From Heptranchias perlo (Eukaryota): a DNA stretch of 64,000 bases. Positions 1,122-61,737 of this stretch are shown here, piece after piece. The DNA lies in NCBI RefSeq assembly GCF_035084215.1, contig NC_090334.1, forward strand, positions 62,744,001-62,808,000. Reading direction: 5' to 3'. The position numbers and the translations under genes were made by a program. How positions within the stretch are numbered: the first letter of the stretch is position 1; the number at the start of each line of letters is the position of its first letter. The notes below the pieces were generated by a model. It was given only the letters and a program-made list of their open reading frames with translations, did no database searches and had not been told where the DNA came from.

Positions 1122-2071
1122 ATGGCAGCAGAGCTCACACCCGTGATATGCTCCTCCTGCACTATGTGGGAAGTCATGGACACTACTGGTGTCCCTGACG
1201 ACTACATGTGCAGGAAGTTTGTCCACCTGCAGCTACTGACTAACCGTATTTCGGAGCTGGAGCTGCGGGTGGATTCACTGTGGAGCATCCGCGATGCTGA
1301 GATTATCGTGGATAGCACGTTCAGTGAGGTGGTCACACCACAGGTAAAGATTACGCAGGAAGAAAAGAAATGGGTGAACGCCAGGAAGAGTAGAAGGACT
1401 AGGCAGGTAGAGCAGGAGTCCCCTGGGGCCATCTCCCTCTCAAACAGATATACCGCTTTGGATACTGTTGGGGGAGATGGCTTATCAGGGGAAAGCAGCA
1501 AGAGCCAAGTTTGTGGCACCACGGGTGGCTCTGCTGCACAGGAGGGGAGGAATAAGAGTGGCAGGGCTATAGTGATAGGGGATTCAATTGTAAGGGGAAC
1601 ATAGGTGTTTCTGCGGCCGCAAACATGACTCCAAGATGGTATGTTACCTCCTTGGTGCTAGGGTTAAGGATATCATGGGGCGGTTGCAGGGCATTCTGGA
1701 GGGGGAGGGTGAACAGCCAGTAGTCGTGGTCCATATCGGTACCAACGTCATAGGTAAAAAAAAGGGATGAGGTCCTGCAAGGTGAATTTAAGGAGTTAGG
1801 AGATAAATTAAAAAGCAGGACCTCAAAGGTAGTGATCTCAGGATTACTACCAGTGCCACATGCTAGTGAGTATGGGAACAGGAGAATAGACCAGATGAAT
1901 GCGTGGCTGCAGGGAGTGTGTAGGAGGGAGGGATTTAGATTCCTGGGACATTGGGACCGGTTCTGGGGAAGGTGGGACCTGTACAAACGGGATGGGTTAC
2001 ACCCGAGCAGGACACGGACCGATGTCCTGGCGGGGGTGTTTGCTAGTGCTGTTGGGGAAGGTTTAAACTAG
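1122..2071 (+). pseudogene. CR1 ORF1 (zinc finger plus SGNH esterase), frameshifted
   Basis: ORFs 1122-1604 and 1832-2071 carry the motifs in different frames, with a stop between them. Confidence 0.85.
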
Positions 2072-3184
2072 AATGGCAGGGGGATGGGAACCTGAGCAGG
2101 GAGACAGAGAAGGGGGAAACAAGGATAGAAACAAAAGAAAGAAAGGGAAGAAGCAATAGTGGAAGGCAGAGAAAACAAGGGCGAAAAAAAAATAGGGCCA
2201 TAGTGCAAAATAATACTAAGACGACCAGCAATCTTAAAAAGACAAGTCCAAAGGCATTGTGTTTTAATGCGCGGAGCATTCGCAATAAGGTAGATGAATT
2301 AACAGCGCAGATAGATATTAACGGTTATGATATAGTTGCGATTACGGAGACATGGCTGCACAGTGACCAAGGATGGGAACTGAACATCCAGGGGTATTCA
2401 ATATTTAGGAAGGACAGGCAAAAAGGGAAAGGAGGTGGGGCAGCGTTGTTAGTAAAGGAGGAAATCAATGCACGGAAAATCACGATGTGGAATCTGTATA
2501 GGTGGAGCTAAGGGGCAGAAAGGGGCAGAAAACGTTGGTGGGGGTAGTCCATAGGCCCCCAAACAGTAGTGGAGATGTAAAGGAGGGCATTAAACAGGAA
2601 ATTAGAGACGCAAGCAAGAAAGGTACAACTACAATCATGGGTGACTTTAATCTACATATAGATTGGTCAAATCCAATTAGCAATAATTCTGTGGGGAAGG
2701 AATTCCTGGAAAGTGTACGTGATGGTTTTCTAGACCAATACGTTGAGGAACCAACTAGAGAACTGACGATTCTAGACTTGGTATTGTGCAATGAGAAAGG
2801 ATTAATTAACAATCTTGTTATGGTCGCTCTTCCCTAAGGGACCCCACACAACATGATAGAATTCCTCATTAAGATGGAGAGTGAAGTAGTCGAATCCGAA
2901 ACTAGGGTCCTGAATCTAAATAAAGGAAATTACGAAAGTATGAGGTGCGAGTTGGCTATGATACATTGGGGAACTTTACTGAAAGGGATGACGGTGGATA
3001 GGCAATGGCTAATATTTAAAGAATGTGTGCAGGAATTACAACAATTATTCATTTCTGTCTGGTGCAAAAATAAAACAGGAAATGTGGCTCAACCTTGGCT
3101 TACAAAAGAAATTAGGGATAGTATTAGATCCAAAGAGGAGACATATAAAATTGCCAGAAAAAGTGGCAAGCCTGAGGATTGGGA

Positions 3185-3287
3185 ATTGTAAACAATTTTA
3201 CAACACCAAGTTATAGTCCAGCAATTTTATTTTAAATTCACAAGCTTTCGGAGGCTTCCTCCTTCCTCAGGTGAACGTTGTTGGAAA
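3185..3287 (-). mobile_element. Penelope-like terminal-repeat insertion (103 bp) with 10-bp TSD AGGATTGGGA
   Basis: The TSD lies at 3175-3184 and 3288-3297, and removing the insert restores CR1 ORF2 (PEDWEQFR). A near-identical copy lies on the + strand at 13314-13408. Confidence 0.8.
3237..3275 (-). ncRNA. Minimal type I hammerhead ribozyme
   Basis: The minus strand reads UUCAC-CUGAGGA-A-GGAGG-AAG-CCUCC-GAAA-GC-UU-GUGAA. This gives the core CUGAnGA/GAAA, a 5-bp stem I, a 5-bp stem II and a palindromic AGCU stem III. Confidence 0.8.
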
Positions 3288-5394
3288 AGGATTGGGAGCA
3301 GTTTAGAATTCAGCAAAGGAGGACAAAGAGATTGATTAAGAAGGGAAAAATAGAGTATGAGAGTAAACTAGCAGGGAACATAAAAACTGATTGTAAAAGC
3401 TTCTATAAATATGTCAAGAGAAAAAGATTAGTGAAGACAAATGTAGGTCCCTTACAGTTAGAAATGGGGGAAATTATAATGGGGAACAAAGAAATGGCAG
3501 AACAATTAAACACATACTTTGGTTCTGTCTTCGCAAAGGAGAACATAAATAACCTCCCAGAAATGTTAGGTCTAGTGAGAGGGAGGAACTGAAGGAAACC
3601 AGTATTAGTAAAACAATAGTGCTAGGGAAATTAATGGGGCTAAAGACTGACAAACCCCCAGGGCCTGATAATCTACATCCCAGAGTACTAAAGGAAGTGG
3701 CCCTGGAAATAGTGGATGCATTGGTGGTCATCTTCCAAAATTCTATAGACTCTGGAACAGTTCCTGAAGATTGGAGGGTGGCAAATGTAACCCCACTATT
3801 TAAAAAAGGAGGGAGAGAAAAAACAGGGAATTACAGACCAGTTAGCCTAACATCAGTAGTGGGGGAAATGCTAGAGTCTGTTATAAGATGTGATAACAGA
3901 ACACTTGGAGGGCATTAACGGGATCGGACAAAATCAGCATGGGTTTATGAAAGGGTATTTATCATGCTTAACAAATCTACTGGAGTTTTTTGAGGATGTA
4001 ACTAGTAGAATAGATAGGGGAGAACCAGTGGATGTGGTGTACTTGGATTTTCAGAAGGCTTTTGATAAGGTCCCACACAAGAGGTTAGTGTGCAAAATTA
4101 AAGCACATGGGATTGGGGGGAATACACTGGCATGGATTGAGAATTGGTTGACAGACAGGAAACAGATTGGGAATAAACGGGTCTTTTTCTGGGTGGCAGG
4201 CAGTGACTAGTGGGGTATCACAGGGATCAGTGCTTGGGTCCCAGCTATTCACAATATATATCAATGATTTGGATGAGGGAATGGAATTAACATTTCCAAG
4301 TTTGCAGACGACACAAAGCTGGGGTGAGTGGGCAAGAACATGGCAGATGCAGTATAACGTGGATAAATGTGAGGTTATCCACTTTGGTTGTAAAAACAGA
4401 AAGACAGATTATTATCTGAATGGTGATAGATTGGGAAAAGGGGAGGTGCAACGAGACCTGGGTATCCTTGTACACCAGTCGCTGAAAGCGAGCATTCAGG
4501 TGCAGCAAGCAGTTAGAAAGGCGAATGGTATGTTGGCGTTCATTGCAAGAGGATTTGAGTACAGGAGCAGGGATGTCTTACTGCAGTTGTACAGGGCCTT
4601 GGTGAGACCACATCTGGAATATTGTGTGCAGTTTTGGTCTCCTTATCTGAGGAAGGATATCCTTGCCATGGAGGGAGTGCAACGAAGGTTTGCCAGACTG
4701 ATCCTGGGATGACAGGACTGACGTATGAGGAGAGATTGGGTCGACTAGGCCTATATTCACTAGAGTTTAGAAGAATGAGAGATGATCTCACCGAAACATA
4801 TAAAATTCTAACAGGACTAGACAGACTAGATGCAGGGAGGATGTTCCCGATGGCTGGGGAGTCCAGAACCAGGGGTCACAGTCTCAGGATACGGGGTATG
4901 CCATTTAGAACCGAGATGAGAGAAATTTCTTCACTCAGAGGGTGGTGAACCTGTGGAATTCTCTACCACAGAGACCAAGTCATTAAATATATTCAAAAAG
5001 GAGATAGATATATTTCTTAATGCTAAAGGGATCAAGGGATATGGGGAAAAGCGGGAACAGTGTACTGAGTTAGGCGATCAGCCATGATCATTTTGAATGG
5101 CGGAGCGGGCCCAAAGGGCCGAATGGCCTACTCTTGCTCCTATTTTCTATGTTTCTATGTTAATACATTCAAGGCTGAGTTAGACAAATTTTTGATCAGC
5201 AAGGGAGTCAAAGAATATGGGGAAAGGGCGGGAAAGTGGAGTTGAGGTAAAAATCAGATCAGCCATGATCTCATTAAATGGCGGAGTAGGCTCAGGGGGC
5301 GGAATGGCCTACTCCTGCTCCTATCTCTTATGGTCTTATGGTCACTCCCAACCCACCTGTTCTTTGGGGTTAAAATTACCTCCGTGGTGTCAGA

Positions 5395-10336: not shown

Positions 10337-10617
10337 TTACTTTCTTATGTGGGGCCCTAATGTCCAAGCATTAGAGCAATGGACTCTCAGAGTACTGTGA
10401 GCTTGATTTTGATTTAATCATTATCTCCCACATTAGATAAAGTTTGCTAGTTCAGACCTATGCCAGCGATGGAGCACTATACAGAAGGGAAGCATTCTGC
10501 CTGGGATAGAGGAACGAGTTGTGGAAATATAAGAGCAATTCCATGCTATTAGTTATAAAAACAGAAAATGAAGGAGAAGCTCAGCAAGTCAGGCAGCATC
10601 TGTAAAGGAAGAAACAG

Positions 10618-10654
10618 AGTTAACGTTTCAGGTCGAAGACCTTTCGTCAGAACT
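10618..10654 (-). ncRNA. Minimal type I hammerhead ribozyme in the Penelope terminal repeat
   Basis: The minus strand reads AGUU-CUGACGA-A-AGGUC-UUC-GACCU-GAAA-CG-UU-AACU, with an intact core and stems and a palindromic ACGU. Confidence 0.82.
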
Positions 10655-11189
10655 GGAAGAAGTTAAAAGAGTTAAAGTTTTTGAGCAAGTGCAGAGCCAG
10701 GGAAAGGTGGGGAGGGAGGGGAGGGGAGGGGAAGAAAGAACAAAAGGGAAGGTCTGTGATAGGGTAGAGGGCACTAGTGATTAAAAGACAAAAGGGATGA
10801 TGGTGCAAGGCAAGGAAGGTGGTAATGAAACAGGTTAAGAAACAAAAGATTGGTCAGTAGCAGCTCTAAATGGCAGCAGCAGAACCATTACCAGCACTGG
10901 CTGACCGAAAAAATGGCAGCAGTGATTATCATCTGAAGTTATTGAAATCAATGTTGAGTCCGGAAGACTGTAAAGTCCTAAACGAAAGATGAGGTGCAGT
11001 TCCTTGAGCTTATGTTGAGCTTCTTTGGAACAGTGTAGGAGGCCGAGGACAGAGTGGGAGTGGGACTGGGAATTAAAATGGCAAGTGACCGGCAGGTCAG
11101 GGTCATGCTTGCTGACTGAGTGGAGGTGTTCAGCAAAGCGATCACCCAGTCTGCGTTTGGTCTCCCCAATTTGGAGAAGACCACATTGT

Positions 11190-11356
11190 CTTTTAAAAAG
11201 CATTTGGACAGTTACATGGGTAAGATGGGTATAGAGGGATATGGGCCAAGTGCAGGCAATTGGGACTAGCTTAGTGGTATAAACTGGGCGACATGGACAT
11301 GTTGGGCCGAAGGGCCTGTTTCCATGTTGTAACTTCTATGATTCTATGATTCTATG
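11190..11356 (+). mobile_element. CR1 3' tail inserted in the Penelope element
   Basis: It ends in (ATTCTATG)n and has TSD ATTGT at 11185-11189 and 11357-11361. Confidence 0.85.
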
Positions 11357-12479
11357 ATTGTGAGCAGCAAATACAGTATGCTAAATTGAAAGAAGTACAA
11401 GTAAATCGCTGTTTCACCTGGAAGAAGTGTTTGGAGCCTTGGCCGGTGGGAAGGGAGCTGGTGAAGGGGCAGGTATTGCATCTCCTACGCTCGCATGGGA
11501 AGGTGCCGTGGGGAGGAGAGTAGGTGTTGGGGGTGATGGAAGAGTGGACCAGGGTGTTGCGGAGGGAGCGGTCTTTTTGGAATGCTGAAAGGGGAGGGGA
11601 GGGGAAGATGTGTTTGGTGTTGGGATCGAGCTAGAGGTGGCAGAAATGGCGGAGGATGATATGTTGAATGTGGAGGCTGGTGGGGCAGAAGATGAGGACA
11701 AGGGGACCCCATCATGGTTCTGGGAGGGAAGGGAAGGGGTGAGGGCAGAAGTGTGGGAAATAAGACGGACACGGTCGAGGGCCCTATCGACTACAATGGA
11801 GGGGAATCCTCGGTTGAGGAAAAAGGAAGACATATCGGAAGCACTGGTGTGGAAGGTGGCATCGTCAGAACAGATGCGACGGAGACGGAGAAACTGGGAG
11901 AAGGGAATAGAGTCCTTACAGGAAGCGGAGTAGGAGGAAGTGTAATCAAGGTAGCTATAGGAGTTGGTGGGCTTAAAATAGATATTGGTTGACAGCCTAT
12001 CCCCAGAAATGGAGATAGAGAAGTTGAGGAAGGGAAGGGAAGAGTCAGAGATGGATCATGTGAAGGTGAGGGAAGGATGGAAATTAGAAGCAAAGTTGAT
12101 GAAATTTTCCAGTTCGGGGCGAGAGCAGGAAACGGCATCGATACAGTCACCAATGTACTGGAAAAAAAGGTGAGGGAGGGAACCTGAGTAGGACTGGAAC
12201 AAGGAATGTTTCACGTATCCCACAAAAAGGCAGGCATAGCTGGGACCCATACGGGTCCCCATAGTGACACCTTTTACTTGAAGGAAGTGAGTGGATTCAA
12301 AGGAGAAGTTGTTCATTGTAAGAACAAGTTCAACCAGGCGGAGGAGGGTGGTAGTGGATGGAAACTGGTTGGGCCTCCGTTGAGGGCAAAAGCAGAGAGC
12401 CCGCAGGCCGTCCTGGTGGGGGATGGAGGTGTAGAGGGACTGGACATATTATTAGTTAATCGCAGAGTTTTATTTGGTG

Positions 12480-12937: not shown

Positions 12938-13590
12938 AGTCACCTCCTGACTCCCCAAAGCCTTTCCACCATCTACAAGGCACAAGTCAGGAGTGTGATG
13001 GAATACTCTCCACTTGCCTGGATGAGTGCAGCTCCAACAACACTCAAGAAGCTCAACACCATCCAAGACAAAGCAGCCCGCTTGATTGGCACCCCTTCCA
13101 CCACCCTAAACATTCACTCCCTTCACCACCGGCGCACAGTGGCTGCAGTGTGTACCATCCACAGGATGCACTGCAGCAACTCGCCAAGGCTTCTTCGACA
13201 GCACCTCCCAAACCCGCGACCTCTACCACCTAGAAGGACAAGAGCAGCAGGTACATGGGAACAACACCAACTGCACGTTCCCCTCCAAGTCACACAACAT
13301 CGCGACTTGGAAACATTTGCCTGAGGAAGGAGAAAATCTCCGAAAGCTTGTTGTGAATTTAAAATAAAATTGCTGGACTATAACTTGGTGTTGTAAAATT
13401 GTTTACAATTGGAAATATATCGCCACTGGGTCAAAATCCTGGAACTCCCTTCGTAACAGCACTGTGGGAGAACCTTCACCACACGGACTGCAGCGGCTCA
13501 AGAAGACGGCTCACCACCACCATCTCAAGGGCAATTAGGGATGGTCAATAAATGCCGGCCTCGTCAGCGACGCCCACATCCCATGAACGA
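12938..13590 (+). mobile_element. Non-LTR retrotransposon 3' end (CR1/L2 group, Crack/Zenon-like)
   Basis: It encodes TIYKAQVRSVMEYSPLAW...IQDKAARLIG and has a 3' stem with AATAAA. Related copies lie at 18085-18885 and 32990-33195. Confidence 0.75.
13314..13408 (+). mobile_element. Penelope-like terminal-repeat insertion with a hammerhead core (13321-13349) and TSD TTGGAAA
   Basis: The TSD lies at 13307-13313 and 13409-13415. The core reads CUGAGGA-A-GGAGA-AAA-UCUCC-GAAAGCUU, and the tail is the same as in 3185-3287. Confidence 0.8.
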
Positions 13591-18084: not shown

Positions 18085-18885
18085 GACCAATACACACAGC
18101 TTGGGCTGACTAATGGCAGATAACATTCGTGCCATATAATGCCAGGTAATAACCAACCCAAACAAGAGAAAGCCCAGCCATCTCACCTGACCATCAACTG
18201 CACCACCATCGCTGGGTCCACCACTATCAACACCTTAGAGGGTCAACACTGATCAGCAGCCTAGCTGGACCAGCCATATCAAAACAGTGGCTACAAGAGT
18301 AGGGCAGAAGCTGGATACTCTGCGATGAGTGGCTCACTTCCTGACCCTCAAACCCTCTCCATCATCTACAAGACTCAGTTCAGGAGTGTAATGGAATACT
18401 CACATGCCTGGATGGGTACAGACACAACAACATTCAACAAACTCAACACCATCCAGGACAGAGTAATTTGCTCGATGGGCACCCACCACTAGACTCAATA
18501 TCAATCCCCTTCACCACCGGAATACTGACTCCAGTACGTACGAGCTACAGAATGCACTGCGGCAACTTACCAAGGTTACTTCGCCAGCACCCACCTCCCC
18601 TGTGACCTCTACCACCAAGATGGACAAGAGCAGCAATGCTGTGGAAACACCATCACCTCCAAGTTCTCCCCCAAATCACAACCATTCTGATGTGGACATA
18701 TATGAGTTACTTCATTATTGTTAGGTATGTATCCTGGAACTTCCTACCTAATACCACTGTGGGAGCACCAACACCATGAGGATGTTCAAGGAGAAGGCCC
18801 ACCATCACCTTCTCAGGGCAATGAGGGGTGGGCAATAAATATGGCCTTGCCAATGTCGCCCACACTCCGACAACCTATTAAAAAA
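18085..18885 (+). mobile_element. Decayed non-LTR retrotransposon 3' end, same family as 12938-13590
   Basis: Colinear nucleotide similarity (ATCTACAAG..CAGGAGTGT.ATGGAATACTC, GCAATAAAT tail). Confidence 0.75.
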
Positions 18886-20399: not shown

Positions 20400-22625
20400 G
20401 CACTATTTCTCATTGTTTCCCATTGAGCGAGAGTCAGTAACACTGCGTGCACTGTTTCCCATTGACTGCGAGTAACACTGTGTGCACTGTTTTCCATTGA
20501 ATGACTGCGAGTAACACCATGTGCATTGTTTCTTATTGTGTGTGTGTCAGTAACACCGTGTGCTCTGTTACCCTTTGAGTGTCAGTAATACTGTGTATGC
20601 TGTTTCCCATTGACTGTCAGTAACACCATTTACACTTTTTCCCATTAAGTGTGTGTCAGTAACATCGTGTACACTTTCTCCCATTGAATGTGTGTCAGTA
20701 ACACCGTGTACACTTTCTCCCATTGAGTGTGTGTCAGTAACACCGTGTACACTTTTTCCCATTGAGTGTGTGTCAGTAACACCGTGTACACTTTTTCCCA
20801 TTGAATGTGTGTCAGTAACACCGTGTACACTTTTTCCCATTGAGTGTGTGTCAGTAACACCGTGTACACTTTTTCCCATTGAATGTGTGTCAGTAACACC
20901 GTGTACACTTTTTCCCATTGAGTGTGTGTCAGTAACACCGTGTACACGTTTTCCCATTGAGTGTGTGTCAGTAACACCGTGTACACTTTTTCCCATTGAA
21001 TGTGTGTCAGTAACACCGTGTACACTTTTTCCCATTGAGTGTGTGTCAGTAACACCGTGTACACTTTTTCCCATTGAGTGTGTGTCAGTAACACCGTGTA
21101 CACTTTTTCCCATTGAGTGTGTGTCAGTAACACCGTGTACACTTTTTCCCATTGAGTGTGTGTCAGTAACATCGTATACACTTTTTCCCATTGAGTGTGT
21201 GTCAGTAAAATCGTGTACACTTTTTCCCATTGAATGTGTGTCAGTAACACCGTGTACACTTTTTCCCATTGAGTGTGTGTCAGTAACACCGTGTACACTT
21301 TCTCCCATTGAATGTGTGTCAGTAACACCGTGTACACTTTTTCCCATTGAGTGTGTGTCAGTAACACCGTGTACACTTTCTCTCATTGTGTGTCAGTAAC
21401 AACGTATACACTTTTTCCCATTGAGTGTGTGTCAGTAACACCGTGTACACTTTTTCCCATTGAATGTGTGTCAGTAACACCGTGTACACTTTTTCCCATT
21501 AAGTGTGTGTCAGTTACACCGTGTACACTTTTTCCCATTGAATGTGTGTCAGTAACACAGTGTACACTTTTTCCCATTGAGTGTGTGTCAGTAACACCGT
21601 GTACACTTTTTCCCATTGAGTGTGTGTCAGTAACATCGTATGCACTTTTTCCCATTGAATGTGTGTCAGTAACACCGTGTACACTTTCTCCCATTGAATG
21701 TGTGTCAGTAACACCGTGTACACTTTTTCCCATTGAGTGTGTGTCAGTAACACCGTGTACACTTTTTCCCATTGAGTGTGTGTCAGTAACACCGTGTACA
21801 CTTTCTCCCATTGTGTGTCAGTAACAACGTATACACTTTTTCCCATTGAGTGTATGTCAGTACCACTGTGTACACTGTTTCCCATTCAGTGTCAGTAACA
21901 CCACGTGCACTGTTGCCCATTGAGTAAGTGTGAATAACACCTTGTGCACTGTTTCCCATTGAGTGTGAATAACACCTTGTGTACTGTTTCCTATTGAGTC
22001 AGTGTCAGTAACATTATGCACTGTTTCCCATTAAATGTGTGTAACACTGTGTGCATTGTTTCCCGTTGAGTGAATGTGAGTAACATGGTGTATAATATTT
22101 CCCACTGAGTGACTGTGGATAACACAGTGGACAATATTTTCCACTGAGTGACTGAGTAACATGGTGTTCAATCTTTCCTACTGAGTGACTGTGAATAACC
22201 CAGTGTACAATGTTTCCCACTGAGTGGCTGTGAATAACCCAGTGTACAATGTTTCCCACTGAGTGACTGTGAATAACCCAGTGTACAATATTTCCCACTG
22301 AGTGGCTGTGAATAACCCAGTGTACAATGTTTCCCACTGAGTGGCTGTGAATAACCCAGTGTACAATATTTCCCACTGAGTGGCTATGAATAATCCAGTG
22401 TACAATGTTTCCCACTGAGTGGCTGTGAATAACCCAGTGTACAATATTTCCCACTGAGTGGCTATGAATAACCCAGTGTACAATGTTTCCCACTGAGTGA
22501 CTGTGAATAACCTAGTGTACAATGTTTCCCACTGAGTGACTGTGAATAACCTAGTGTACAATGTTTCCTACTGAGTGACTGTGAATAACCTAGTGTACAA
22601 TGTTTCCTACTGAGTGTCAGTAAAG
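20400..22625. repeat. 39-bp minisatellite (more than 50 units) with two homogenised variants
   Basis: Unit A is TCAGTAACACCGTGTACACTTTTTCCCATTGAGTGTGTG (about 20650-21850). Unit B is GTGAATAACCCAGTGTACAATGTTTCCCACTGAGTG(A/G)CT (about 22180-22620). Degenerate units occur at the left edge and between the two blocks. Confidence 0.97.
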
Positions 22626-27871: not shown

Positions 27872-29056
27872 ATGGGGGGCGTGATGGCTGCATTCACCAC
27901 TACATCCGAGGACGAGGAACATCACCATCCCCACCAGGCACGGCGTGCACTTCTGCCACTTGTAGCTCCACAACATAGTGCTGCGCCACAGGCACCTGCA
28001 CAAGAGCACAGAGGGGAACAACAGAGGGAGTGACGTTGCAGGAGCCACTGCCCTTGTCAGAGGGTCTACAGACTGAGGCTCAGCTTCCTGGGCCTCTCTG
28101 AGGAGCAGTGCATATGGAGGCTGAGAGAAAGTCACCAGGTGGTCGCAGAAATCTGCAGCCTCCTTCATGCCGAGCTGCTTTCGGCTAACCCTGGTGGCAT
28201 CTCATTACCCGTCACAGTTAAAGTGACCAATACCCTCAACTTTTTCGCCTCCGGATCATTCCAGGGTGTCACCGATGACACCACCGGGGTCTCTCAGTCG
28301 TCTGCACACAAGTGCATAAGGCAGGTCACCGACGGCTTGTTTTGCAGATCCTCGCCAGCCGGAGAAGGCAGTGGGATTCCATTCTGTGGCTGGCTTCCCA
28401 CGGGTACAGGGTGCAATTGATTGCACGCATATAGCAATCCGAGCACCTCCACAAGAGCCAGGACTGTTCATCAACAGAAAGGGCAATCACTCCATCAACG
28501 CTCAGCTCCTTTGTGACCACCGCAAAAGATTTCTTCACCAGATTCCCTGGCAGCTGCCACGATTCATTCATTCTGAGGGAATCCAACATCCCAGGCCTCT
28601 TCCATGCACCAAACACCCCTAAGGGCTGGTCCTCGGAGACAAGAGGTACCCCCTGCACACGTGGCTCATGAGGAACCCCATCAGCGAGTAACAGCGTCGA
28701 TACAATAACAGCCACATCGCCACCAGGTCTGTAACTGAACATGCGATAGGGCTGCTGAAGATGCAATTTCGGTGCCTCGATCATTCTGGGGGAGCGCTTC
28801 AATACGCACCAACCGAGTGGGTCACATTATAGTAGTGTGTTTTGTCCTGCACAACATGGCACAACAGAGAGGGGTACTGGTTGATGAGGTCCCATGCCCT
28901 CAGCCACCACCCACATCTGCAATCAACATTGAGGAGGAGCAGGAGCAGCAGCAGGAGGAGGAGGAGGAGGACAACGACGAACCCATGGGCAACGCAGCAG
29001 CTCACCTGGTCGCTCATGAGGCCAGGGAGTCACTCATATGTGAATGGTTCTCATAA
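27872..29056 (+). pseudogene. Harbinger DDE transposase, frameshifted
   Basis: Fragments LNFFASGSFQG, AIDCTHIAIRAP, NRKGNHSINAQL, LGDKRYP and LHNMAQQR lie in shifting frames. Confidence 0.9.
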
Positions 29057-29359
29057 GATCAGAAAGTGAGAAGAGTCCAGTCCTCACACCACTTGGAAAG
29101 ACCAACACCAACAACCCCCACCCTGCAGAAAACAGTCCTGCAACTACACATACACCCACTGTAAAGTGACCCACTGCATGGCATCAAGTGTCGCTGTTCA
29201 CAATGGAGCACATGAAAGGGCACTATCACAAAAGCCAGTCAAGAATGGGCAAGACGTGGCAGTAGTGGTGAGAATGATAACATTTACCGTGATTTTAACA
29301 AAAAACAAATATAAATGAAAACCATGACAGTCTGTCAGACACCCTTGTGCATTGTGATC

Positions 29360-31386
29360 GCAAATCCTTAGCCTTTCTCTTCCTACTACTTCTACGTGGT
29401 GCACCCCCTGTGACTGCAGCAGAGGTGGTGGCAGGTTGCTCATGTTCATGCCCTGACTGCTTAGATGCTTTCAGGCTACATCCTCTGGGTTTTGGAGCCC
29501 ATGAGGGCCCCTCCAAAGACTGCTCCACCTGCACCTGTGCAGGGGCAGACTCAGCCACCTGGAGAAGAGGCAGCGCTGCAGGTACTGGTTGAGAGTGGGG
29601 CAACGGGTGAGACATGGGAGCGCTTTGAGTAGCGTCCCCACTTCCATGTCCCCTTTCGCCATCATCCTTCTCCTGGACCAGGTCCACATCACTCCTATCA
29701 CCCTGCTGGAGAACAGTCTGGAGGACATGTATGATGCCTTGGAAGCCCAGTTGTAAAGTTTCTGTCTGCCTGTTTAAGACGGCAGAATGTTGTTCACCAT
29801 GAGTCCAAACAGCCGTTGTCAGGGCCTGAATGGACTCATTTGTGAGCCGTGCTTGAAGCTCAATGGAGGCTAGCCTTCTCTCCATCACAGACATTCCTGC
29901 ACTTACCCATGACACTATCTCAAACATTTCCGCAGTTACCTGCGACACCATCTCAAACATTTCCGCAGTTACCTGCGACACCATCTCAAACATTTCCGCA
30001 GTTACCTGCGATACTATCACAGACAGTTCCTCATGTCCCTATGACACTATCTCAGAGATTCCCTCACATCCCTCTGACACTATCTCAGAGATTTCCTCCC
30101 TTGTACCACTATTCCACTAATGCAGGAGTTGGACTCCTCCATCTTCTGCGCTTTTGTGGACAGTGTGCGTGGCACCTGTTCCAGTACTTTGCAAATGTGC
30201 TGCTGTCCCTCAATCATTCTCCTTTTAAAGGATGGCCCCCCCGGGGTTCAGCATCTGTGTCCAGCTGAGCAGAGCCTGGAGAGGAGCGCGCTCACTGACG
30301 CGGACTCTCCACTGCTGCCCCTGCCACCGGTGTCTGCTCATGCTCACTTGTGTGTGGTGACTCACCAGGTGCCAACCCAACTAACTGACTAGTAGGACCC
30401 ATCGAGGTGTGAGTATCTGCGCTGGTGGATGGCTTGCCAAGATGTGACAGTGTGCCCTCAGAGGCTGGAAACTCCTCTAAGGAATCGCCCTCTGCCGTCA
30501 CTACAGTTGTTGAATGGCCTGTAATAGAACAGAGGCAATATTAAGCATCATCACAGATGTGTCATGTAGCGATGAACATACTGAGGTGTTCAAAATGCCA
30601 ATCATTGTTAACATCAATTCATGTTGTGTGTGATGAATGTTAAAGTTGTGTCACCAGATGTTTGTGGGGTGCCAGTCTCGGCATCCCCGACGGACAGGCA
30701 CTCGAGGGTGCGGCTGATCTCCAGGGCCTCCTCCTCCTCCTCTGTAAGGCCCACTATTTGTTGTGGCCCCCCTCCAGTCCTTGCCCTCTCCCGTGCATTT
30801 TGCGCTCTCTTCTCCTACAAGGGGAGAAAGTACAGACATGTGAGGGAGTGATGGTGAAGTGGTCAGCTGATGAATGCATTGCTTTGGGTGAGGCTGACCA
30901 TGAAAGAGGTGCATCAGAGGGTGAGTATCAGACAGAGACATCACATTCGATCAGGATTGGGGTGAGTGGTAATGGTGGGGTCACAAATGGGGAGGTGAGG
31001 AGGTGCTGAGGAAGTGCAGGTAAGTTGAGGATGAGCTTTAAGTGGGTGTGAGGAGTGATATGATGGAGTAGACTTGGCAGTGCAGAATGTGAGGGGGGAG
31101 GGGGTTGATGTGCACCACAGAATGCAGGAGAATCATTAAGTGTACTCACTTTTGCTGACCTAGTTAGGTCATTGAAATGCTTCCTGCACTGGTCCCAAGT
31201 GCGGCAAATGTTGCTCCTGCTGGTGACCTCCTCTGCCACCTCGAGCCAGGCCTTCTTGGCGGCAGAGACAGGGCACTTCCTCCTATCGGCCGGGGAAAAT
31301 AGTTCCCTCCTCCTCACCTCGGCCAGTAGCAGCTGAAGTGAGGCATTGCTGAATCTTGGAGCAGCCTTGCCCCTGTGCTGCTCCAT
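29360..31386 (-). pseudogene. Harbinger Myb/SANT-like protein gene with 3 exons (31386-31150, 30814-30655, 30518 to about 29360), disrupted
   Basis: Exon 1 encodes PRFS..L..L..V..R..LF...AW..VA..V......RTWDQCRKHFNDL. The GT-AG introns sit at the same positions as in the intact copy, and there is an in-frame TGA at 30292. Confidence 0.88.
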
Positions 31387-31854
31387 TGGGTCTTCTGGCT
31401 CTTTGCTCCAGCAAAATCAATTGGATCAATGGCTCTTTAAATCCAGACGTTCCAGCTGACAGCCTGTCATGCGAGTGCGCAGTCCGCCCGCTGCGCAGCT
31501 TTTGGACGGCAAATCCAGAAACAAGGTTAAGGGGCACCAATTAAGTCGCGATCGTGTGGGGAATGGTAAGTTTTATTATTTGGGTTTGCTGCACACCCAC
31601 TGACCCCTCCGCTGCCATCCCGCCGCCCTTTTAAAATCGAGCCCCTAATGTTTATTCAGTAATCCCTGCTGGAAGCGCATGCGTTTGAATATTGAGAGAG
31701 AACAAGATGTAGGTTGGCTGTATTTCCACTAATGGTAAAATAGCTGCTGACAGTCACTGTAAAGGTTCACATGAATATGACCAACAGGGCAAGACGGGGA
31801 CTGATGCCTGTGAAACCATGTCAACAAGGAGCCAGTATATTCAGTAGAGAGCAG

Positions 31855-42484: not shown

Positions 42485-42968
42485 GTTAGTGTCGAGGTAA
42501 CCCAACTAATCCTTAGTGCATATTGCAGAGTCTCAGCATAATCCAGACACCTGTTCAGTTGCAGACCATCTTTTTGATCGGAGTCATGTAATGTTGGCTA
42601 AAAAATATTTGTGGTGTATTGCCAGAATCTGCCACTGAGAACATCAGAGACTGTTTAAATAGATTACATTGCAAAAAAAGCGGTATAGGTATAGGTTAAC
42701 TAGATTTTCTGTGTTGCATTTGTAACACAAATACTATGTATAGATTGCTCTCTGTACCATCATTTAAAAAAAATGAAGTAGCATTAATTTAACATGCTGA
42801 TACTCATTAAGTGATATATAACCAGCTCTTGCTGTCTTTGTTCCTGTTAGGATTCATGGTGTTTGGACAAGACATGTTTGCGGCAATGTGTTATTATGAC
42901 AGCTGAGAAAAAGCAATTAATCAAGATGAATTCTTGAAAGTTCACTTGTTGTATTGATTGCTCTGCAG

Positions 42969-43924
42969 ATAAATCATATGAGATCCCCGCAGAGGAATGG
43001 CAAGGATCATCTGCTGAGATAGTGGGAATAAAGGACAAGGAAGAGCAGGACAGCGTAGAGGGGTCACAGCCAAATGTAAGTGGACACCGCTTTCTGGACA
43101 TGCAGGATACAACTACAGGCTCAAACAGCGAAACAACCAACAGTAGAGATATGCCGACAGAAAAGAAAGATGCAACGGGAGATGAGCCAGTAAAGCGTGG
43201 TTCCACTGAAAATGAATCTGTTGCGGAGCAGTCCCAGGATCAGAGCCGAAGTGAGGAGCATAGTACAGAGGAAAGTGAGCAAAGCGAAGATGAGTACACC
43301 CAGGAAGAGGAAGTGGATGAAGATCAAATCAAAGAGAGTGAGGAGGACGAGGAAGAAAAACACAGCCGTTATGATGACAGTAAGGATGAGGAGCTAGCTA
43401 ACGGTGAAGAACCTTCACAAGAAGATAGAGGCGATGGAGAAACACAGGAAGAGAACAGAAGCCAAAGTGAAGACAGTGACCATTCAGAGGGGGATGGGAA
43501 GATCTCAGAGGAAGAAATAAAGTCCAATGAGGATAACAGGAGCCACCAGAATTCAGAGGATGAAGAAACAGAGGAGGATGAATACTCAAATAATAGTGAT
43601 GAAAAGGACAGGTTGTCTGAAGAAGAGTGGGTGGAGAGAAAAAAATGGAAGAAGATGGGTGAACTGGCCCCAGAGCAAAACTCAAGAAAACACGGAGAAA
43701 TAAGCGATGAAGATACAGCTGTGTTAGAATCTGGAAATCCCAAACCACAGAACAAACATAGTAATTTCCAAAACTCGTGGGGAGGTAGAAGATCTCACTC
43801 TGGGGAAGATATCAGGGAGAAAGGGAAGAAGAAACCCATTGCATCATACCCGGTGCGAAAAAGGCTTGATGTGGAGGATAAGAAAGAGAAAGAAGAGGAA
43901 GGAAGTGCCAATAGGAAAAATGAG
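42969..43924 (+). CDS. CHGA: Chromogranin A exon 6 (large acidic exon, 956 bp)
   Basis: Open E/D/S-rich frame with a WE-14-like KKWKKMGELA and the conserved EEEGSANRK. Acceptor CTGCAG; GT donor at 43925. Confidence 0.92.
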
Positions 43925-45949
43925 GTTTGTGTCATTTTAAGTGCACTGGCTGATTTGTTGTGCTTCCCATCAGTGGTGATCTGTATCATGGTTGTGATAG
44001 TTAGTTGCTAAGATGGAGCTATCTCTTACCAGGCCTATTTCTTGTAAGCCACTGCTCAGATACTCCCTTTGGGGGAAGTTTCTGTAGATTAGCAACTGCT
44101 TATAAACTCCCAGTCGCTGCCCCTGGGGAGGGGACAGATAACCACGGTCAGAAAAACAAGGAAATGACTGTCTTTCTTTTTGACACTGAAGCATGACAGA
44201 TTCAGGCAAGTTACGAGACATGTCAATCTATCTAGATATATCTTAACAGGTCTCATGTGACATTAGCTAGTCAGAAGATATGGGTTGTAATTTTTGAAAT
44301 CGATGGAAATGAAAATCGTACAGGTGTAAAATGGGTGGTTGATCCGCTCCGCCAGTTCATCCCCCAAAAGGTGAATGGTGTTTTATAATAGTGTTATCAA
44401 CAAAGTATGATGGGAAAGGGGTTACAGGAAGTGAGTGTCACACAAGAAGTGTGCACTATACCCAAGATACTTACTATTACCAGTAGATGTACCATGGCAT
44501 TGAATGGGGAAGTCGAGATTAAATTCAGCCTTCAGGTGAAGCGGAGTTAGACGGACAGGGATAAATGAAAGCGGGCCAAGGGAGGATTACAATGCTGGAG
44601 GCTAGAGAGTGAAGGTATGGGGGAAGGGAGAAGGTAGAGCAGGGTTACAGGTGAGAGGGTAGAGCAGGGTTACAGGTTGGGAGAGGAGAACAGCATAATA
44701 ACAACCAAAAGATAATTAAATTATTTTTACTTTTAAATGAGGGAAATGACTCACCTGGATACCTTACCAAAATGGCTGGCAGTCAGACCTGTGAAAAGGA
44801 ACAAGGTGTTCTGTCACCCAGTGGACAGAATGTGGAACTGCAGGCAGACTTAACCCAAACTTTTTAATAGGGAATCTCAGAATCACAGGCTTTTGTGACT
44901 GAAAGTGTGACTAAAGGCTGTGTGCTCTAAATGGCAAATCTTATTAAGGTGCCACATAGAGGCATCTTAGACAATTACAAATATAATGTGGTCTGGAAAC
45001 AATTAACATGTAAACTCCATAAAGAATATTGACAGGACATACCAATTTTAATAATATATGGATAGAAGTAAACGAAAAGGGGTGAGGATGATGTGCATAT
45101 GATTAGGTGCAGGTGTAATCAGGTATAAAATATCGTGTAAAAATTGTAAGGATTTAAATTGCCGTGATAAATTTATACTTTTTATTTAAAGGCCTAATAC
45201 GGCAACTATTTTTTAAAGTGTAATGGCAAACTCATTTCTCCATAGTCCAAATTAGAAATATTTGATAATAATCTACCCTACATTCATTTGTAATAGAAGC
45301 TCGTAGTTATAAAAGTTTAAAATGTATTTTCACACATGGTGTGACTGGCTAAAGTAGGTCTCTTCATCCTGTACATTATCAAGTAATGAGTTAAGCCATT
45401 TCTAAACATAGTAACTATTATTATCTAACACAGTGGAGGGGTTCAAATTACATCTACAATGAGAGCAAAGCTAGTGTGTTCCAAGGCTGTGACTCTCAAT
45501 TTAGTTTTGTTTACCTGTGGAGACTTACTGGCGACTTTATCTTACTGTCACTAACACTTAATGTGATAGCTGGTGCTTTTTATCCATGGTACTCCATGTC
45601 ATGTGACAAAGGTGGTGCAATACAACACTATGGAACCACACAAAGATCACTATTACTAGTGGACTAGAAGGGAAAGTATTACTGAAATCATTAGATTTGG
45701 TTTCAGGGATACTGGTCACGCGTAGATATTGCAGAAGACTAACCTAAACAAAAGTTATATTTGTGTATGGGATCAAGAGATAAGCTCAACATGGTGGCAC
45801 CAAGTGTCAACACATTTTTTTCTTTTTATCTCAGAAAATAGAGGTTATATCACGGCCAGTAGCAAAGTTTGAGACAAACCTCCACAAGTGAAACTGATAA
45901 TGATAAAACTGGAGGTCAGTTGTTGGCTCCACGTTTGGTAATATTTATC

Positions 45950-56100: not shown

Positions 56101-59100
56101 AATTCAAACACAGACAGAAATTTGAAAGAATGACGTCAGAATTAGCGCAGAGAGGAAGGAGCGGCAGAACCCGAGGGAACTAAAATAATTATCGAGGATA
56201 AGTATTGAGGTAAGGATCTAAGAAAAGAACTAGAATAATTAAACCGGGTTTAAAAAGTGTGAGATTCGGTTCAGGTAAACAACTCCCGGACCTGGTGACG
56301 TCACAGGACAGGAGGTTGGTGATTGGTTTTTTGCTCTCTAAGCTCAGGGAGAGGTTTGAACTAGGCTCCTACAACTTGCTAATACTTTATTAAACAAATA
56401 ATTTAAACTAGATAAATTAATTTGTTTAAAAAAAACTAAAAATAAACCAAGCAAATTAATTATATTAAAACATTGATTATTTAAATAAATAAAACAAGGT
56501 TAGATAGAGATGGCAGTGCAGGTGGTGCCGTAACTGTAGCAAGTGGGAGTTTGTGGAGAGCAGTGTGATCCCAGGCAACCACATCTGCAGTAAGTGTCTG
56601 CAACTCGAGGAACTTCGGCTCAGCGTTGTTGAGCTGGAGTCCGGGATGCAGATTTTGCTTTGCATCAGGGAGGGAGGGAGTTATCTGGACGCTTTGATCC
56701 AGGAGGCAGTCACACCCCTTAGGTTAGGTAGTAGTTCAGATTTGGTCAGTTGTCAGGGACAGGAAGATGTGACTGCGAGTCTGGCAGGTACAGGGACCCA
56801 GGATGCAGTGATGGAGCAGCCTCAGCCTATGACCTTGCCCAACAGGTACGAGGTACTTGCTACCTGTATGGATAAGATCAAAGACTGCAGGGAGGTTGGG
56901 CAAACTGACCACGGCACCCTGGTACAGGAGGCCATTCAAAGTGGGGGGAGCAAAAAGGAACGTGGTAATGGTAAGGGATGGTATAGTCAGGGGGATAGAC
57001 ATTGTTCTCTGCAGCCACGACCGGGTGTCCCGAAGGCTGTGTTGCCTGCCCAGTGCTGGCTGGAAAAGAACTTGGAGCATGAGGGGGAGGATCCAGTTGT
57101 TGTGGTCCACATTGAAAGCAACAAAATAGGTAAAACTAGGAATGAGGTTCTGCTGAGGGAGTTTGAGGGGCTAGGGTACAAACTAATAAGCAGAAACTCA
57201 AAAGGTAATAACCTCTGGATTACTACCTGAGCCACACGCAAACTGGCATAGGGACAAACAGATTAGATGGTTAAATGCGTGGCTGACAGACTAGTGTGGG
57301 AAGCAGGGGTTTCAATTCATGGGGCACTGGTACCAGTACTGGGGAAAGAGGGAGCTGTTCCATTGGGACGGGCTCCACTTAAAACGGGCTGGGACCAGTG
57401 TCCTTGCGAATCGAATAACTAGGTCTGTAGATAGGGCTTTAAACTAAAAAGGGGGGGGACGGGGAAAGTCCAGGTGAGGAGAAAGTTATAAATCTAATGA
57501 GGGAAGTCAAGGCCGTAGAGCAGTGGAGCAATTTGGGTAAAGATAAGCAGAGTGGGACAAGAAGGGACAGAGAGTTTAACGATAATAGTGCATCAGTGAA
57601 TAAGGTCAAATCAGGGGAAAATGGTAAAAAGTTAAAATTAAAGGCGCTTTATCTGAATGCACAAAGCATTCGTAACAAGATACACAAATTAATGGCACAA
57701 AAGAGATAAATGGGTTTGATCTAATAGCCATTACTGAGACGTGGTTGCAAGGTGACCAAGGTTGGGAACTAAACATTCCAGAATACTTGACTTTTCAAAA
57801 AGATAGGCAAAATGGAAAAGTTGGGGCGGGCGGGTAGCACTGATAATAAAGGATGAGATAAGGACAGTAGTGAAAAAGGATCTTGGCTTGGAAGATCTGG
57901 AAGTAGAATCAGGAAGTAAAATCTGCATCAGATAAGAAATAATGAAGGGCAGAAAACACTGGTGGGAATAGTTTATAGGCCCCCTAACAATAGTTATACT
58001 GTTGGACAGAGTATTAACCAAGAAATAAGAGGAGCTTGTAACAAAGGCAATGCAATAATCATGGGGGACTTTAATCTTCATATAGACTGGGCAAATCAAA
58101 TTGGCAAAAGTGGTTTGGAGGACGAGTTCATGGAAAGCATTTGAAACCGTTTCCTAGAACAATGTCATGGAACCAACCAGGGAACCGGATATTTTAGATC
58201 TTGTCTTGTGTAATGAGACAGGGTTAATTAGTCATCTCATAGTAAAGGATCCTCTGGGGAAGAGTGATCATAATATGATAGAATTTCACATCGAGTTCGA
58301 GAGTGATGTATTTAAGTCCAAAACTAGAGTCTTAAATTTAAACAAAGCCAATTACATAGGTATGAGGGGCAAGTTGGCTAAGGTAGAATGGGAAATCAGA
58401 TTAAAAGATATGACAGTAGATAAGCAATGGCAAACATTTAAAGAAATAATTCAGAATTCTCAACAAATATACATTCCATTGAGGAATAAAAACTCCATGG
58501 AAAAAGTGATCCATCTATGGCTAACTAAAGAAGTTAAGGATAGTATTAGATTAAAAGAAGAGGCTTATAATGTTGCCAATAAGAGTAGTAAGCCTGAGGA
58601 TTGGGAGAGTTTTAGAAACCACCAAAGGATGACCAAAAAATTGATAAAGAGTAAGAAAATAGAAAATGAGAGTAAACAAGCAAGAAATATAAAAACAGAT
58701 TGTAAGTGCTTCTACCAGTATATAATAAGGAAGAGAGTACCTAAAATAAGCGTGGGTCCCTTAGAGGCTGAGACAGAAGAAATTATAATGGGGAATAAGG
58801 AAATGGCAGAGACGATAAACAGATATTTTGCATCTGTCTTCACAGTAGAAGACACAAAAAAATACTGGAAATAGTGGGGAACCAACAGTCTAATGAAAGT
58901 GAGGAAATTAAAGTAATTAATATTAGTAAAGAAAAAGTACTAGAGAAATTAATGGGATTAAAAGCCAACAAAACCCCTGGACCTGATGATCTACATCCTA
59001 GGGTTCTAAAAGATGTGGCTGCAGAGATAGTTCATGCATTGCTTGTGATCTTCCAAAATTCCCTAGATTATAGAACGGTCCCAGTGGATTGGAAGATAGC

Positions 59101-60186
59101 AAATGTAAAACCACTATTCAAGAAAGGAGGGAGAGAGAAAACAGGGAGCTACAGGCCAGTTAGCCTGACATCAATAGTAGGGAAAATGCTAAAATCCATT
59201 ATTAAGGACATGGTAACAGGACACTTAGAAAATCATAATATGATTAGGCAGAGTCAACATGGTTTTATGAAAGGAAAATCATGTTTGACAAATCTATTAC
59301 AGTTTTTCGAGGATAAAGGGAACCGGTGGATGTATTATATTTGGATTTTCAAAAGGCATTCAATAAGGTGCCACTTGAAAGGTTGTTACACGAGATAAAG
59401 GCTCATGGGGTTGGGGGTAACGTATTAGCACAGATAGAGGGTTGGTTAACGGACAGAAAACAGGGAGTTGGGACAAACAGGTCATTTTCAGGTTGACAGG
59501 CTGTTACTAATGAGGTGCCGTAAGGATCAGTGCTGGGGCCTCAGCTATTTACAATCTATATTAATGACTTAGATGAAGGGATCGAGAGTAATGTATCCAA
59601 GTTTGCTGATGATACAAAGCTAGTGGGAAAGTAAGCTGTGAGGAGGACACAAAGGGCTCGATTTTAGGGTCGGGTTTCCGGCGGGTTTCCAGCGGGGGGG
59701 CCCCGAAAATCCCGATCTCCGATCACGTGACCGGATTCGGACGAAATCCCGGCCACTTCCGGGTACCGCGCTGACGTGCGGGGCTGCGCGCGCAAGCCCC
59801 GCTGGTGGGAATCCCGCAGGCAATTAAAGCCAGCGGGGTTCCACTTGAGAGCACTTAACTTGCTCGTTGTGGTCAGTTAATGAGCTGAAGCAGCTGTCAA
59901 AAGAGGAAGTGTGGGATTTTACGGTCAAAGCAGTCAGTTTCCCACACTGGGGGAAACAGGACCCTTCAAACCAGGCGTGTTGCAGCCAGCAGCCTGTGCC
60001 AGGTGCCAAGGTGCGCTCCACGGGGGAGCGCCCTCACCCACGCAGGAGGCCACCGCGTCACATAGGGCAACCCCTGCCCTCCACCAACCCCCGCCAAGCC
60101 AGAGGACAGACCGACACGAAACCGCAGCCCCAGTCCGAGGACCCACCCACCTACCCTGCACAACCCCTCACACCAACACCTGCCAG

Positions 60187-61440
60187 ATGGGTGGTGCGTT
60201 GACATCGTCGGAGGACGAACAGGATGACCAGCCCCAGCAGCCTCACAGTCCACGCCGTCCGCCTCGGAGAGGTGGGGCCCCCCAACACGGTGCTGCGGCA
60301 CACCCACCTGCACAGCAGGAGGGAGGGCAACCGCAGAGAGAGATGCGTCGCAGGAGGCACTACCCTCCGCACAGGGTGTACAGAGCGAGGCTCAGCTTCA
60401 TGGACCTCTCCGAGGAGCAGTGCATACGGAGGCTCAGAGTCAATCGCCAGGTAGTCGCCGACATCTGCAGCCTCCTTAACGACGAGCTGCTCCCTGATGG
60501 ACCAAGCAGCATCTTCTTACCTGTCGCCGTCAAAGTCACCACTGCCCTCAACTTCTTCGCATCTGGTTCCTTCCAGGGTGCCACCGGGGACATCACCGGG
60601 GTCTGTCAGTCCTCTGCACACAAGTGCATAAGGCAGGTCACCGATGGGTTGTTCCGCAGGGCCTCCCACTACATCAACTTCGCCATGGACGAGCGCAGCC
60701 AGATGGAGAGGGCGGTTGGATTCCATGCCATGGCCGGCTTCCCACGGGTGCAGGGTGTAATCGACTGCACCCACATCGCAATACGGGCACCTCCGCATGA
60801 GCCAGGGCTGTTCATCAACAGGAAGGGGTATCACTCCATGAACGCCCAGCTCATCTGTGACCACCGCCAGAGATTCCTACACGTGTGCGCCAGATACCCC
60901 GGCAGCTGCCACGATGCCTTCGTCCTCAGGGAGTCCGCCGTCCCGCCCATCCTGCAGGCACCCAACGCCGGCAACGGCTGGCTCCTCGGCGACAAGGGGT
61001 ATCCCCTCCACACGTGGCTCATGACACCTCTGAGGAACCCCATCACCGAGCCGGAGCGTCGGTACAATGACAGCCACACTGCTACCAGGTCTACAATTGA
61101 GCAGACCATAGGGCTTCTCAAGATGCGCTTCAGGTGCCTTGATCGTTCTGGGGGAGCGCTCCAATACACACCATTCAGAGTGGGACGAATCATAGTTGTC
61201 TGCTGTGCCCTGCACAACATGGCCCAACAGAGAGGGGTGCCGCTGGAGGAGGCCCCATCCACACCCGCCACCCACATTGAGGAAGGCGAGGGCGAGGAGG
61301 AGGAGGAGGAGGAGGAGGAGGAGGCGGAGGAGGAGGAGGAGGACGCGCCCGAGGATGTTGGACGACCCATGCGCCGAGCCGCGACTCACCGGGATGGTCG
61401 CCGGGCCAGGGACGCACTCATACGTCAACGGTTCTCCTAG
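60187..61440 (+). CDS. Harbinger DDE transposase (417 aa from the first ATG)
   Basis: Uninterrupted ORF with an HTH region (LNFFASGSFQ) and the catalytic motifs IDCTH, GDKGYP and RSTIEQTIGLLKMRFRCL. It has an acidic tail. The start position is supported by the paralogous MGG start at 27872. Confidence 0.93.
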   Translation: MGGALTSSEDEQDDQPQQPHSPRRPPRRGGAPQHGAAAHPPAQQEGGQPQREMRRRRHYPPHRVYRARLSFMDLSEEQCIRRLRVNRQVVADICSLLNDELLPDGPSSIFLPVAVKVTTALNFFASGSFQGATGDITGVCQSSAHKCIRQVTDGLFRRASHYINFAMDERSQMERAVGFHAMAGFPRVQGVIDCTHIAIRAPPHEPGLFINRKGYHSMNAQLICDHRQRFLHVCARYPGSCHDAFVLRESAVPPILQAPNAGNGWLLGDKGYPLHTWLMTPLRNPITEPERRYNDSHTATRSTIEQTIGLLKMRFRCLDRSGGALQYTPFRVGRIIVVCCALHNMAQQRGVPLEEAPSTPATHIEEGEGEEEEEEEEEEAEEEEEDAPEDVGRPMRRAATHRDGRRARDALIRQRFS

Positions 61441-61737
61441 AGTCAGACACTGCGAGGCGCTCGCATCTCCTCACCTGCACATGCGAGCGGCCATACCAGC
61501 CCCCTCCACTGAAGAGTGCTGCCAGTAATCCTGCACCCACAGCAGTGTGCCCAATGGGTGGCAGCAGGTGTTCGCCGTCATGATGGCCTCCACGGAACGC
61601 AACTACTGCACAAGCCGCGGAAGAATGGACGAGAGGTGGCAGGAGTGGTGAGAATAGACTATTTAATATGTGGAATGTGACATCATTTAAGAAACAAAGT
61701 ACAAAATAATAAACACCCTGGTGTATTCCCTTTGTGA

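Follow-up and report, generated by a model that had tools for sequence, protein, structure and literature searches.

A 103-nt insertion carrying a minimal hammerhead, probably a short retrotransposed copy of a Penelope-like pseudo-LTR

The window, that is, the whole 64,000-nt stretch of DNA analysed here, contains two short related segments, copy A and copy B, each bounded by a short direct repeat and each lying in a LINE. The features at and around the two copies are listed below.

3185-3287, minus strand: copy A, probable retrocopy of a segment of a Penelope-like pseudo-LTR, 103 nt, without poly(A) and without the optional tail
3175-3184, plus strand: left target-site duplication (TSD) of copy A, 10 bp; base 3184 also agrees with the base that follows in the family master (microhomology of 1 nt)
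3288-3297, plus strand: right TSD of copy A, 10 bp
2047-4948, plus strand: host of copy A, a decayed APE + RT LINE; its reading frame is split at the insert and the EDWE codons are duplicated
58597-58606, plus strand: empty-site control, the same LINE position in a paralog, where the 10-mer occurs once
13314-13408, plus strand: copy B, 95 nt, probably of another subfamily; its hammerhead is out of register and its 3′ end is that of copy A
13307-13313, plus strand: left TSD of copy B, 7 bp
13409-13415, plus strand: right TSD of copy B, 7 bp; its first 3 nt equal the continuation of the master (3-nt microhomology)

The host LINE of copy A matched RVT_1 (E 5e-7) and, below the cutoff, Exo_endo_phos (E 1.4e-4), and from its motifs we take it to be of the CR1 type. 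Copy A itself has no coding content, and the hammerhead accounts for the whole of its 5′ part. The direct repeat flanking it is perfect. A paralogous LINE at 58518-58714 is free of the insert and holds the 10-mer only once, which confirms the 10-bp repeat, already described in an earlier reading made from the sequence alone (hereafter the sequence-only reading), as a true TSD. Copy B sits in the 3′ end of a LINE different from the host of copy A; a paralog near 32990 contains its target once, with one mismatch, and another at 18635-18770 is too diverged to tell. The TSDs are short and variable in length, both have empty-site paralogs, and poly(A) is absent. Both copies are solo at their loci, and TRF (minimum score 100) reported a tandem array at neither site.

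Read on the minus strand, copy A contains the parts of a minimal hammerhead followed by two further conserved elements.

3271-3276, minus strand: stem I, 5′ arm
3263-3270, minus strand: catalytic box CUGAGGA with an extra A between A9 and G10.1
3250-3262, minus strand: stem II, 5 bp with a 3-nt loop; the fifth pair is G-C in copy A, A-U in copy B and C-G in the metagenomic contig L001
3242-3249, minus strand: GAAA box, palindromic AGCU (stem III as a dimer only) and U16.1-U17; predicted cut 3242/3241
3236-3241, minus strand: stem I, 3′ arm
3226-3231, minus strand: AATAAA hexamer, present in copies A and B, absent from L001
3210-3219, minus strand: conserved downstream block GGACTATAAC, found in both copies, in other subfamilies and in L001 (where the search pattern required it)

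A strict minimal-hammerhead descriptor matched two places in the window, copies A and B, and none in each of 30 shuffles. The complete minimal hammerhead of the sequence-only reading, with its stems, core and AGCU, is confirmed, and the cut site had been placed correctly. Stem I of copy A (GUUCAC/GUGAAU) forms five Watson-Crick pairs and one GU pair in register, stem II is GGAGG/CCUCC, and the triplet preceding the predicted cleavage between 3242 and 3241 is CUU. The CUGANGA and GAAA boxes, the G10.1-C11.1 pair opening stem II and the extra base after A9 are all present, as is a palindromic 15.1-16.1 segment that would permit a dimeric stem III. The motif was not recovered through Rfam, which gave no hammerhead at the gathering score in the window and three matches, none of them a hammerhead, at E ≤ 10 in 3000-3500. 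Across copy A, copy B and L001, stem II is paired in 15 of 15 cells, one position showing three Watson-Crick pair types; the covariation is not significant with three sequences only, since 91 of 500 shuffles reached the score.

On structural grounds we regard copy A as a member of the minimal-hammerhead class of Penelope-like elements (PLEs). With the minimal hammerheads of PMC4209133 it shares the type I layout, the extra nucleotide after A9, the G10.1-C11.1 pair, the palindromic 15.2-16.2, a helix III that is not stable, and solo occurrence; it differs in its 5-bp stem II, and the available text of that study maps neither insertion ends nor TSDs nor a start site. Monomers of this class showed no cleavage and dimers cleaved poorly (PMC4209133); dimer cleavage is also the subject of Lunse 2016, as covered in a review (PMC6765202). 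The nearest-neighbour energies calculated for copy A were -24.7 kcal/mol for the active dimer, -27.2 kcal/mol for two monomers and -33.5 kcal/mol for the best dimer. The active dimer is thus less stable than two monomers, in line with the poor dimer cleavage in PMC4209133, and the model suggests that it is possible, not favoured.

The AATAAA hexamer is a possible poly(A) signal; it occurs in both copies and not in L001, and the copies end without poly(A). The 3′ arm of stem I resembles the consensus of a 5′ splice site, and the hammerhead cut site coincides with this splice-site-like GTGAAT. Farther along the minus strand (3241-3185 and the family tail), the conserved downstream block is branch-point-like and the family tail has a CAG, so that there would be an intron of ~69 nt, the removal of which destroys stem I. 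L001 is without the splice-site-like GT, and among the rows listed for the public run X6 there was no spliced join for the putative intron.

Copy B had been described as a second copy with the same 3′ end, truncated at nearly the same 5′ point. The shared 3′ end stands, the 56 3′-most nucleotides being identical (56/56). Copy B is, however, probably a representative of another subfamily and not a mere second copy, because contigs from another organism (run X14, rows 3253 and 3271) show B-type letters. Stem II of copy B has an A-U pair in place of the G-C of copy A, and its stem I is wobble-paired. Owing to a 3-nt duplication, stem I keeps only 2 bp in register, compared with 6 bp in copy A and 5 bp in L001; copy B thus lacks the short stem I of the class, and its cut site is out of register. 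The two 5′ ends do lie near one another without coinciding exactly: core C3 is base 18 of copy A and base 8 of copy B, a difference of 10 nt relative to the core.

Contigs from four of 16 listed public runs (X3, X6, X9 and X14) aligned to window positions 3165-3307. In one organism (organism A), 16,661 contigs of the DNA run X3 and 2,899 contigs of X6, whose RNA label is a guess, belonged to the family, and two other organisms carry it with one contig (X9) and 12 contigs (X14). Each contig gives one depth, and the contig depth profile was therefore not counted as evidence; all counts of loose ends rest on the 18 rows listed of 158. No listed contig spanned the whole of 3165-3307, or either junction with 31 letters on each side, a result that is uninformative either way. 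Beyond 3184, at the 3′ edge, a common sequence follows in 110 X3 contigs and one X14 contig; in X14 it amounts to 34 letters and reaches the contig end. On the 5′ side, one upstream sequence occurs in X3, X9 and X14 (rows 3281 and 3277), and the upstream sequence of a second subfamily occurs in X3 and X14 (row 3274). Since other copies extend beyond it in both directions, the 100-nt unit is only part of a longer element, one that comprises several subfamilies.

The extended family bears on the retrozyme-like element that the sequence-only reading had offered as one interpretation. Non-LTR retrozymes (PMC7229834; bioRxiv 2026.07.22.740005) are likewise small non-coding units with a type I hammerhead and kinship to PLE pseudo-LTRs, and solo monomers of them are reported. 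In the portions available, the same sources describe tandem repeats of 150-450 nt, typically canonical hammerheads, and circular RNA. Copies A and B, by comparison, are solo and TSD-bounded, carry a minimal hammerhead and end off the cut site. A non-LTR retrozyme was rejected at both loci, where a single unit stands in place of at least two units with a complete hammerhead each; together with the TRF result and the continuation of the family sequence on both sides, this speaks against the retrozyme-like interpretation.

A wider possibility is a self-propagating, non-autonomous short element of SINE or retrozyme type, whose 100-nt copies are transcribed and re-copied in trans by a PLE protein. 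The great abundance of the family in X3 and X6, the reports of non-autonomous PLE derivatives (PMC8557442; bioRxiv 2026.07.22.740005) and the head-to-tail joins in two X3 contigs are compatible with such an element. We nevertheless consider it improbable: the unit is part of a longer family sequence on either side, the short copies are without the upstream TATA-like box described below, copies A and B each stand alone and represent different subfamilies, and their ends do not match the ribozyme cut. ARAGORN found no tRNA genes in the whole window, in a search that a decayed tRNA-like head would escape.

The two X3 contigs with head-to-tail joins, the sole departures from solo occurrence among the contigs listed, differ from each other. 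One (3281 to 3234) has the hammerhead alone duplicated, with a period of about 49 nt, and the other (3281 to 3184) has two short copies 18 nt apart. Both are natural dimer candidates for cleavage.

The longer element to which the unit belongs was approached with a pattern scan. Metagenomes gave a single match, L001, and viral contigs gave none. L001 has the CUGANGA box and both stems, which are features outside the search pattern. Four matches in prokaryote genomes (L002-L005) were dropped as chance; they have no CUGANGA box, and their alignment scores are 54-64 compared with 88 for L001. L001 is a low-coverage contig that looks chimeric, with bacterial-looking flanks. Its hammerhead is preceded by a frameshifted peptide ending about 210 nt upstream. 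The end of this peptide is 61% identical to the protein P0002 over 29 aa (E 7e-4), with 17 of 21 residues identical in the shifted frame, and P0002 in turn matches the C-termini of shark proteins (19 matches of 29 candidates). The shark protein P0009 matched RVT_1 (E 5e-9), and P0020 gave RVT_1 and GIY-YIG below the cutoff. A protein search with the 40-aa L001 piece returned only the piece itself (1 of 939 candidates), and Pfam assigned no family to any of eight fragments of the window and L001.

Segment 515-1075 of L001 is an animal-type PLE end, flanked on either side by a gene of bacterial appearance; this marine contig is probably chimeric. The order within it is the endonuclease C-terminus, a 3′ UTR, a TATA-like box, the hammerhead, a tail-like segment and an ATG.

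Through its relative L001, and thus indirectly, copy A appears to belong to the 3′ pseudo-LTR behind an open reading frame encoding RT and GIY-YIG. The linker of P0009 contains C-x4-C-x2-C, the tie of which to the insert runs only through L001; a Cys-rich linker between RT and EN is a mark of Neptune elements (PMC8557442, PMC3846280). The L001 link, the tail, the TSDs and the minimal hammerhead lead us to regard the insert as part of a Penelope-like pseudo-LTR, and the earlier assignment to a dimer-type minimal hammerhead from a Penelope terminal repeat is likewise supported. We consider it highly probable (about 0.9) that copy A arose by retrotransposition of a short stretch of the pseudo-LTR of an EN+ PLE, probably of Neptune type, the PLE protein having synthesised it and integrated it with a TSD. 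Its minimal hammerhead would then be a passenger from uncleaved RNA, and cutting of the monomer is not expected. As an object, copy A is ordinary: Cervera & De la Pena 2014 found that the minimal hammerheads of metazoan PLE pseudo-LTRs are mostly solo, and interpreted them as truncated PLEs (PMC4209133).

No full-length master of this family was seen in the organism of the window. The window has a PLE of its own (10.6-12.45 kb), which was rejected as a candidate master; it shows 33% identity to P0009, a weak match to P0002 and a different hammerhead-like motif, and blastn between it and the insert found only chance words of 11-18 nt.

This second PLE (10590-12450, minus strand) consists of decayed RT and GIY-YIG-like frames, the identity to P0009 extending over 93 aa, and is interrupted near 11180-11350 by another short repeat. 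At about 10650 its own hammerhead-like motif is followed by a pyrimidine tract, CAG and ATG, an arrangement that looks like a pseudo-LTR intron acceptor.

The 3′ ends of the copies are informative about priming. Copies A and B stop just before the common tail, target DNA overlapping the tail by 1 nt in copy A and 3 nt in copy B, and one of the X3 tandem contigs is also without this optional tail behind the fixed 3′ end. In the sequence-only reading the AATAAA region had been the tail of the insertion. It was not added on insertion, for poly(A) is absent and the optional Penelope tail is missing in both copies. Frangieh 2024 reported that PLE reverse transcription begins at two internal sites behind the hammerhead, between which lies an optional tail of 30-40 nt (PMC11167929). 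The common 3′ continuation in the 110 X3 contigs and the X14 contig fits this tail between two RT start sites and, by analogy, the 3′ ends of copies A and B fit the first internal initiation site. In the same work catalytic mutants of the hammerhead left insertion in vitro unaffected, the main template being uncut RNA; internal initiation was demonstrated there for a Poseidon element, not for Neptune (PMC11167929). Our copies resemble those of that element, Anolis Poseidon PAc, in the fixed internal 3′ end behind the hammerhead, the optional tail of 30-40 nt and the presumed uncut template. They differ in that the likely master is of Neptune type and the hammerhead holds no start codon, and the available account of PAc does not discuss genomic run-off copies of ~100 nt or a transcription start (PMC11167929).

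The 5′ ends call for a separate explanation. The earlier interpretation that RT stalls at the ribozyme is difficult to reconcile with copies A and B: for an RT moving 3′ to 5′ on the template, stems I and II would be the first obstacles, but the whole motif is present in both, and copy A goes on for another 11 nt after the 5′ arm of stem I. Self-cleavage of the template does not account for the end either: the first base of such an RNA would be 3241, and the core would be gone. It is true that each of the four resolved 5′ ends is no more than 17 nt away from the core, and RT might resume and then drop off just past a stable structure. However, the monomer fold of the motif alone is weak (-13.6 kcal/mol, z -1.8), copy B ends at a similar point although its motif is out of register, and no loose end falls at 3241/3242 among the 18 rows listed of 158, a weak argument. 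We regard it as very improbable that the 5′ end is determined by the ribozyme, whether through stalling or through cleavage.

We propose that the ~100-nt copies may instead be run-off products. A promoter in the pseudo-LTR would start the RNA 7-17 nt ahead of the hammerhead core. The PLE protein would nick the target and use the first of the two internal sites for priming, a position some 57 nt past the hammerhead cut site and ahead of the optional tail. The cDNA would pass through the hammerhead and run off the 5′ end of the RNA after about 100 nt, and repair would leave a TSD of 7-10 bp. The retroviral strong-stop product is an analogy for such a run-off cDNA. For the short copies of this family, we rate the combination of internal RT initiation with run-off at the transcription start as an even chance. 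The general form of the proposal, in which PLEs mass-produce strong-stop-like insertions of ~100 nt by internal RT initiation on the 5′-proximal pseudo-LTR, the 5′ end marking the transcription start, is more tentative and stands slightly below even odds.

In X3, X9 and X14 the family sequence ahead of the unit contains TCATTT (counted by hand), which matches the initiator consensus. The background frequencies per base in the window are 0.0017 for TCAKTY and 0.011 for YYANWYY. Only four 5′ junctions are resolved, those of copies A and B and of the two X3 contigs, and the initiator match was noticed post hoc. Relative to the initiator-like A, copy A starts at +2. The X3 contig 3281 to 3184 starts at +1, with unrelated DNA before it, and the X3 contig 3281 to 3234 starts at +6; two of the seven rows listed for such X3 contigs touch this edge. 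Copy B starts at the CA-TTT of its subfamily, a weaker motif, and its junction is ambiguous by a few nucleotides of microhomology. We infer that the initiator-like motif would be the real start site, with most short copies ending there. Among the upstream-side rows listed, 10 of 13 loose ends cluster at 3271-3281; this pile-up is not a distribution of 5′ ends, because the positions are largely forced by the differences between copy A and the family masters.

Further promoter-like features lie upstream. An ATG is present at -24 in all three X9 and X14 upstream rows that reach that far, from two subfamilies, and is absent from the two X3 consensus rows checked (3274 and 3281; agreement 0.48 and 0.51). 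In L001 the ATG lies at -25, at the end of a TATA-like box (TATTTAA) that stands at -31 of the initiator TCACTTT. The TATA-like box was seen in L001 only, and a donor-like CAG/GTAAT at 789-796, upstream of this box, would suit an earlier start.

A putative TATA box and initiator in a pseudo-LTR have a precedent (PMC3846280), and pseudo-LTR promoters have been shown for Drosophila Penelope (PMC2377424). The promoter of D. virilis Penelope is TATA-less; transcription begins there at 371, 45 nt ahead of an intron that ends at 491, directly against the hammerhead (PMC2377424, PMC4209133). With >100 nt separating this start from the hammerhead, initiation beside the ribozyme is not a general rule.

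These junctions also have to be weighed against ordinary heavy 5′ truncation, in which a long PLE RNA is primed at the 3′ pseudo-LTR and copying stops early through low processivity or microhomology capture. The ~100-nt copies would then simply be the shortest members of a graded series of lengths, and the match to the initiator would be due to chance. High 5′ truncation is standard for PLEs (PMC8557442), and solo minimal hammerheads have already been interpreted in this way (PMC4209133). Longer copies of the family do exist, as X9 and X14 have loose ends that extend for 97-176 letters, and the 5′ junction of copy B shares microhomology with its target (X14 row 3271). On the other hand, in three of the four resolved junctions the copy begins at +1, +2 or +6 relative to a single initiator-like A, no copy with a resolved junction starts within the hammerhead, and the promoter-like spacing is kept in two shark-type subfamilies and L001. 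We regard ordinary truncation as an unlikely account of the short copies, though a considerably better one than self-propagation.

The solo pseudo-LTRs and TSD-flanked PLE insertions of Adineta vaga offer a further comparison. TSDs of 8-10 bp, a 31-bp optional tail and a putative TATA box and initiator are described there as well; in the available description the solo pseudo-LTRs are about 200 nt long and rare, several being without a TSD (PMC3846280). The copies described here are half as long, TSD-bounded and very abundant. Titles and abstract openings in the literature gave no account of this shark-type family or of PLE run-off copies ending at a transcription start site (TSS); the plot of genomic copy ends in Frangieh 2024 may bear on novelty.

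If run-off at the transcription start is true, internal RT initiation and the thousands of solo hammerheads would be joined by one simple mechanism, which would explain why these genomic minimal hammerheads are solo and yet complete. The start sites of PLEs would be readable from genomic DNA, providing a cheap genomic test of PLE copying, and any promoter-bearing pseudo-LTR might seed short non-autonomous elements. It would also follow that the RNA being copied usually carries its hammerhead uncleaved.

Several other features of the window were recorded. A GC-rich Harbinger-type transposon at 59884-63640 has a long open transposase frame (DDE_Tnp_4, E 8e-37) and convergent Myb/SANT frames, and a more decayed relative of it lies at about 28000-31400. 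A 39-bp minisatellite of 57 copies occupies 20416-22617, with open frames on both strands that suggest a switch of orientation near 21400. On the plus strand at 42938-44011, an acidic open frame of 357 aa contains paired basic residues and has no Pfam match; we presume that it is a putative large exon of a granin-type secretory protein.
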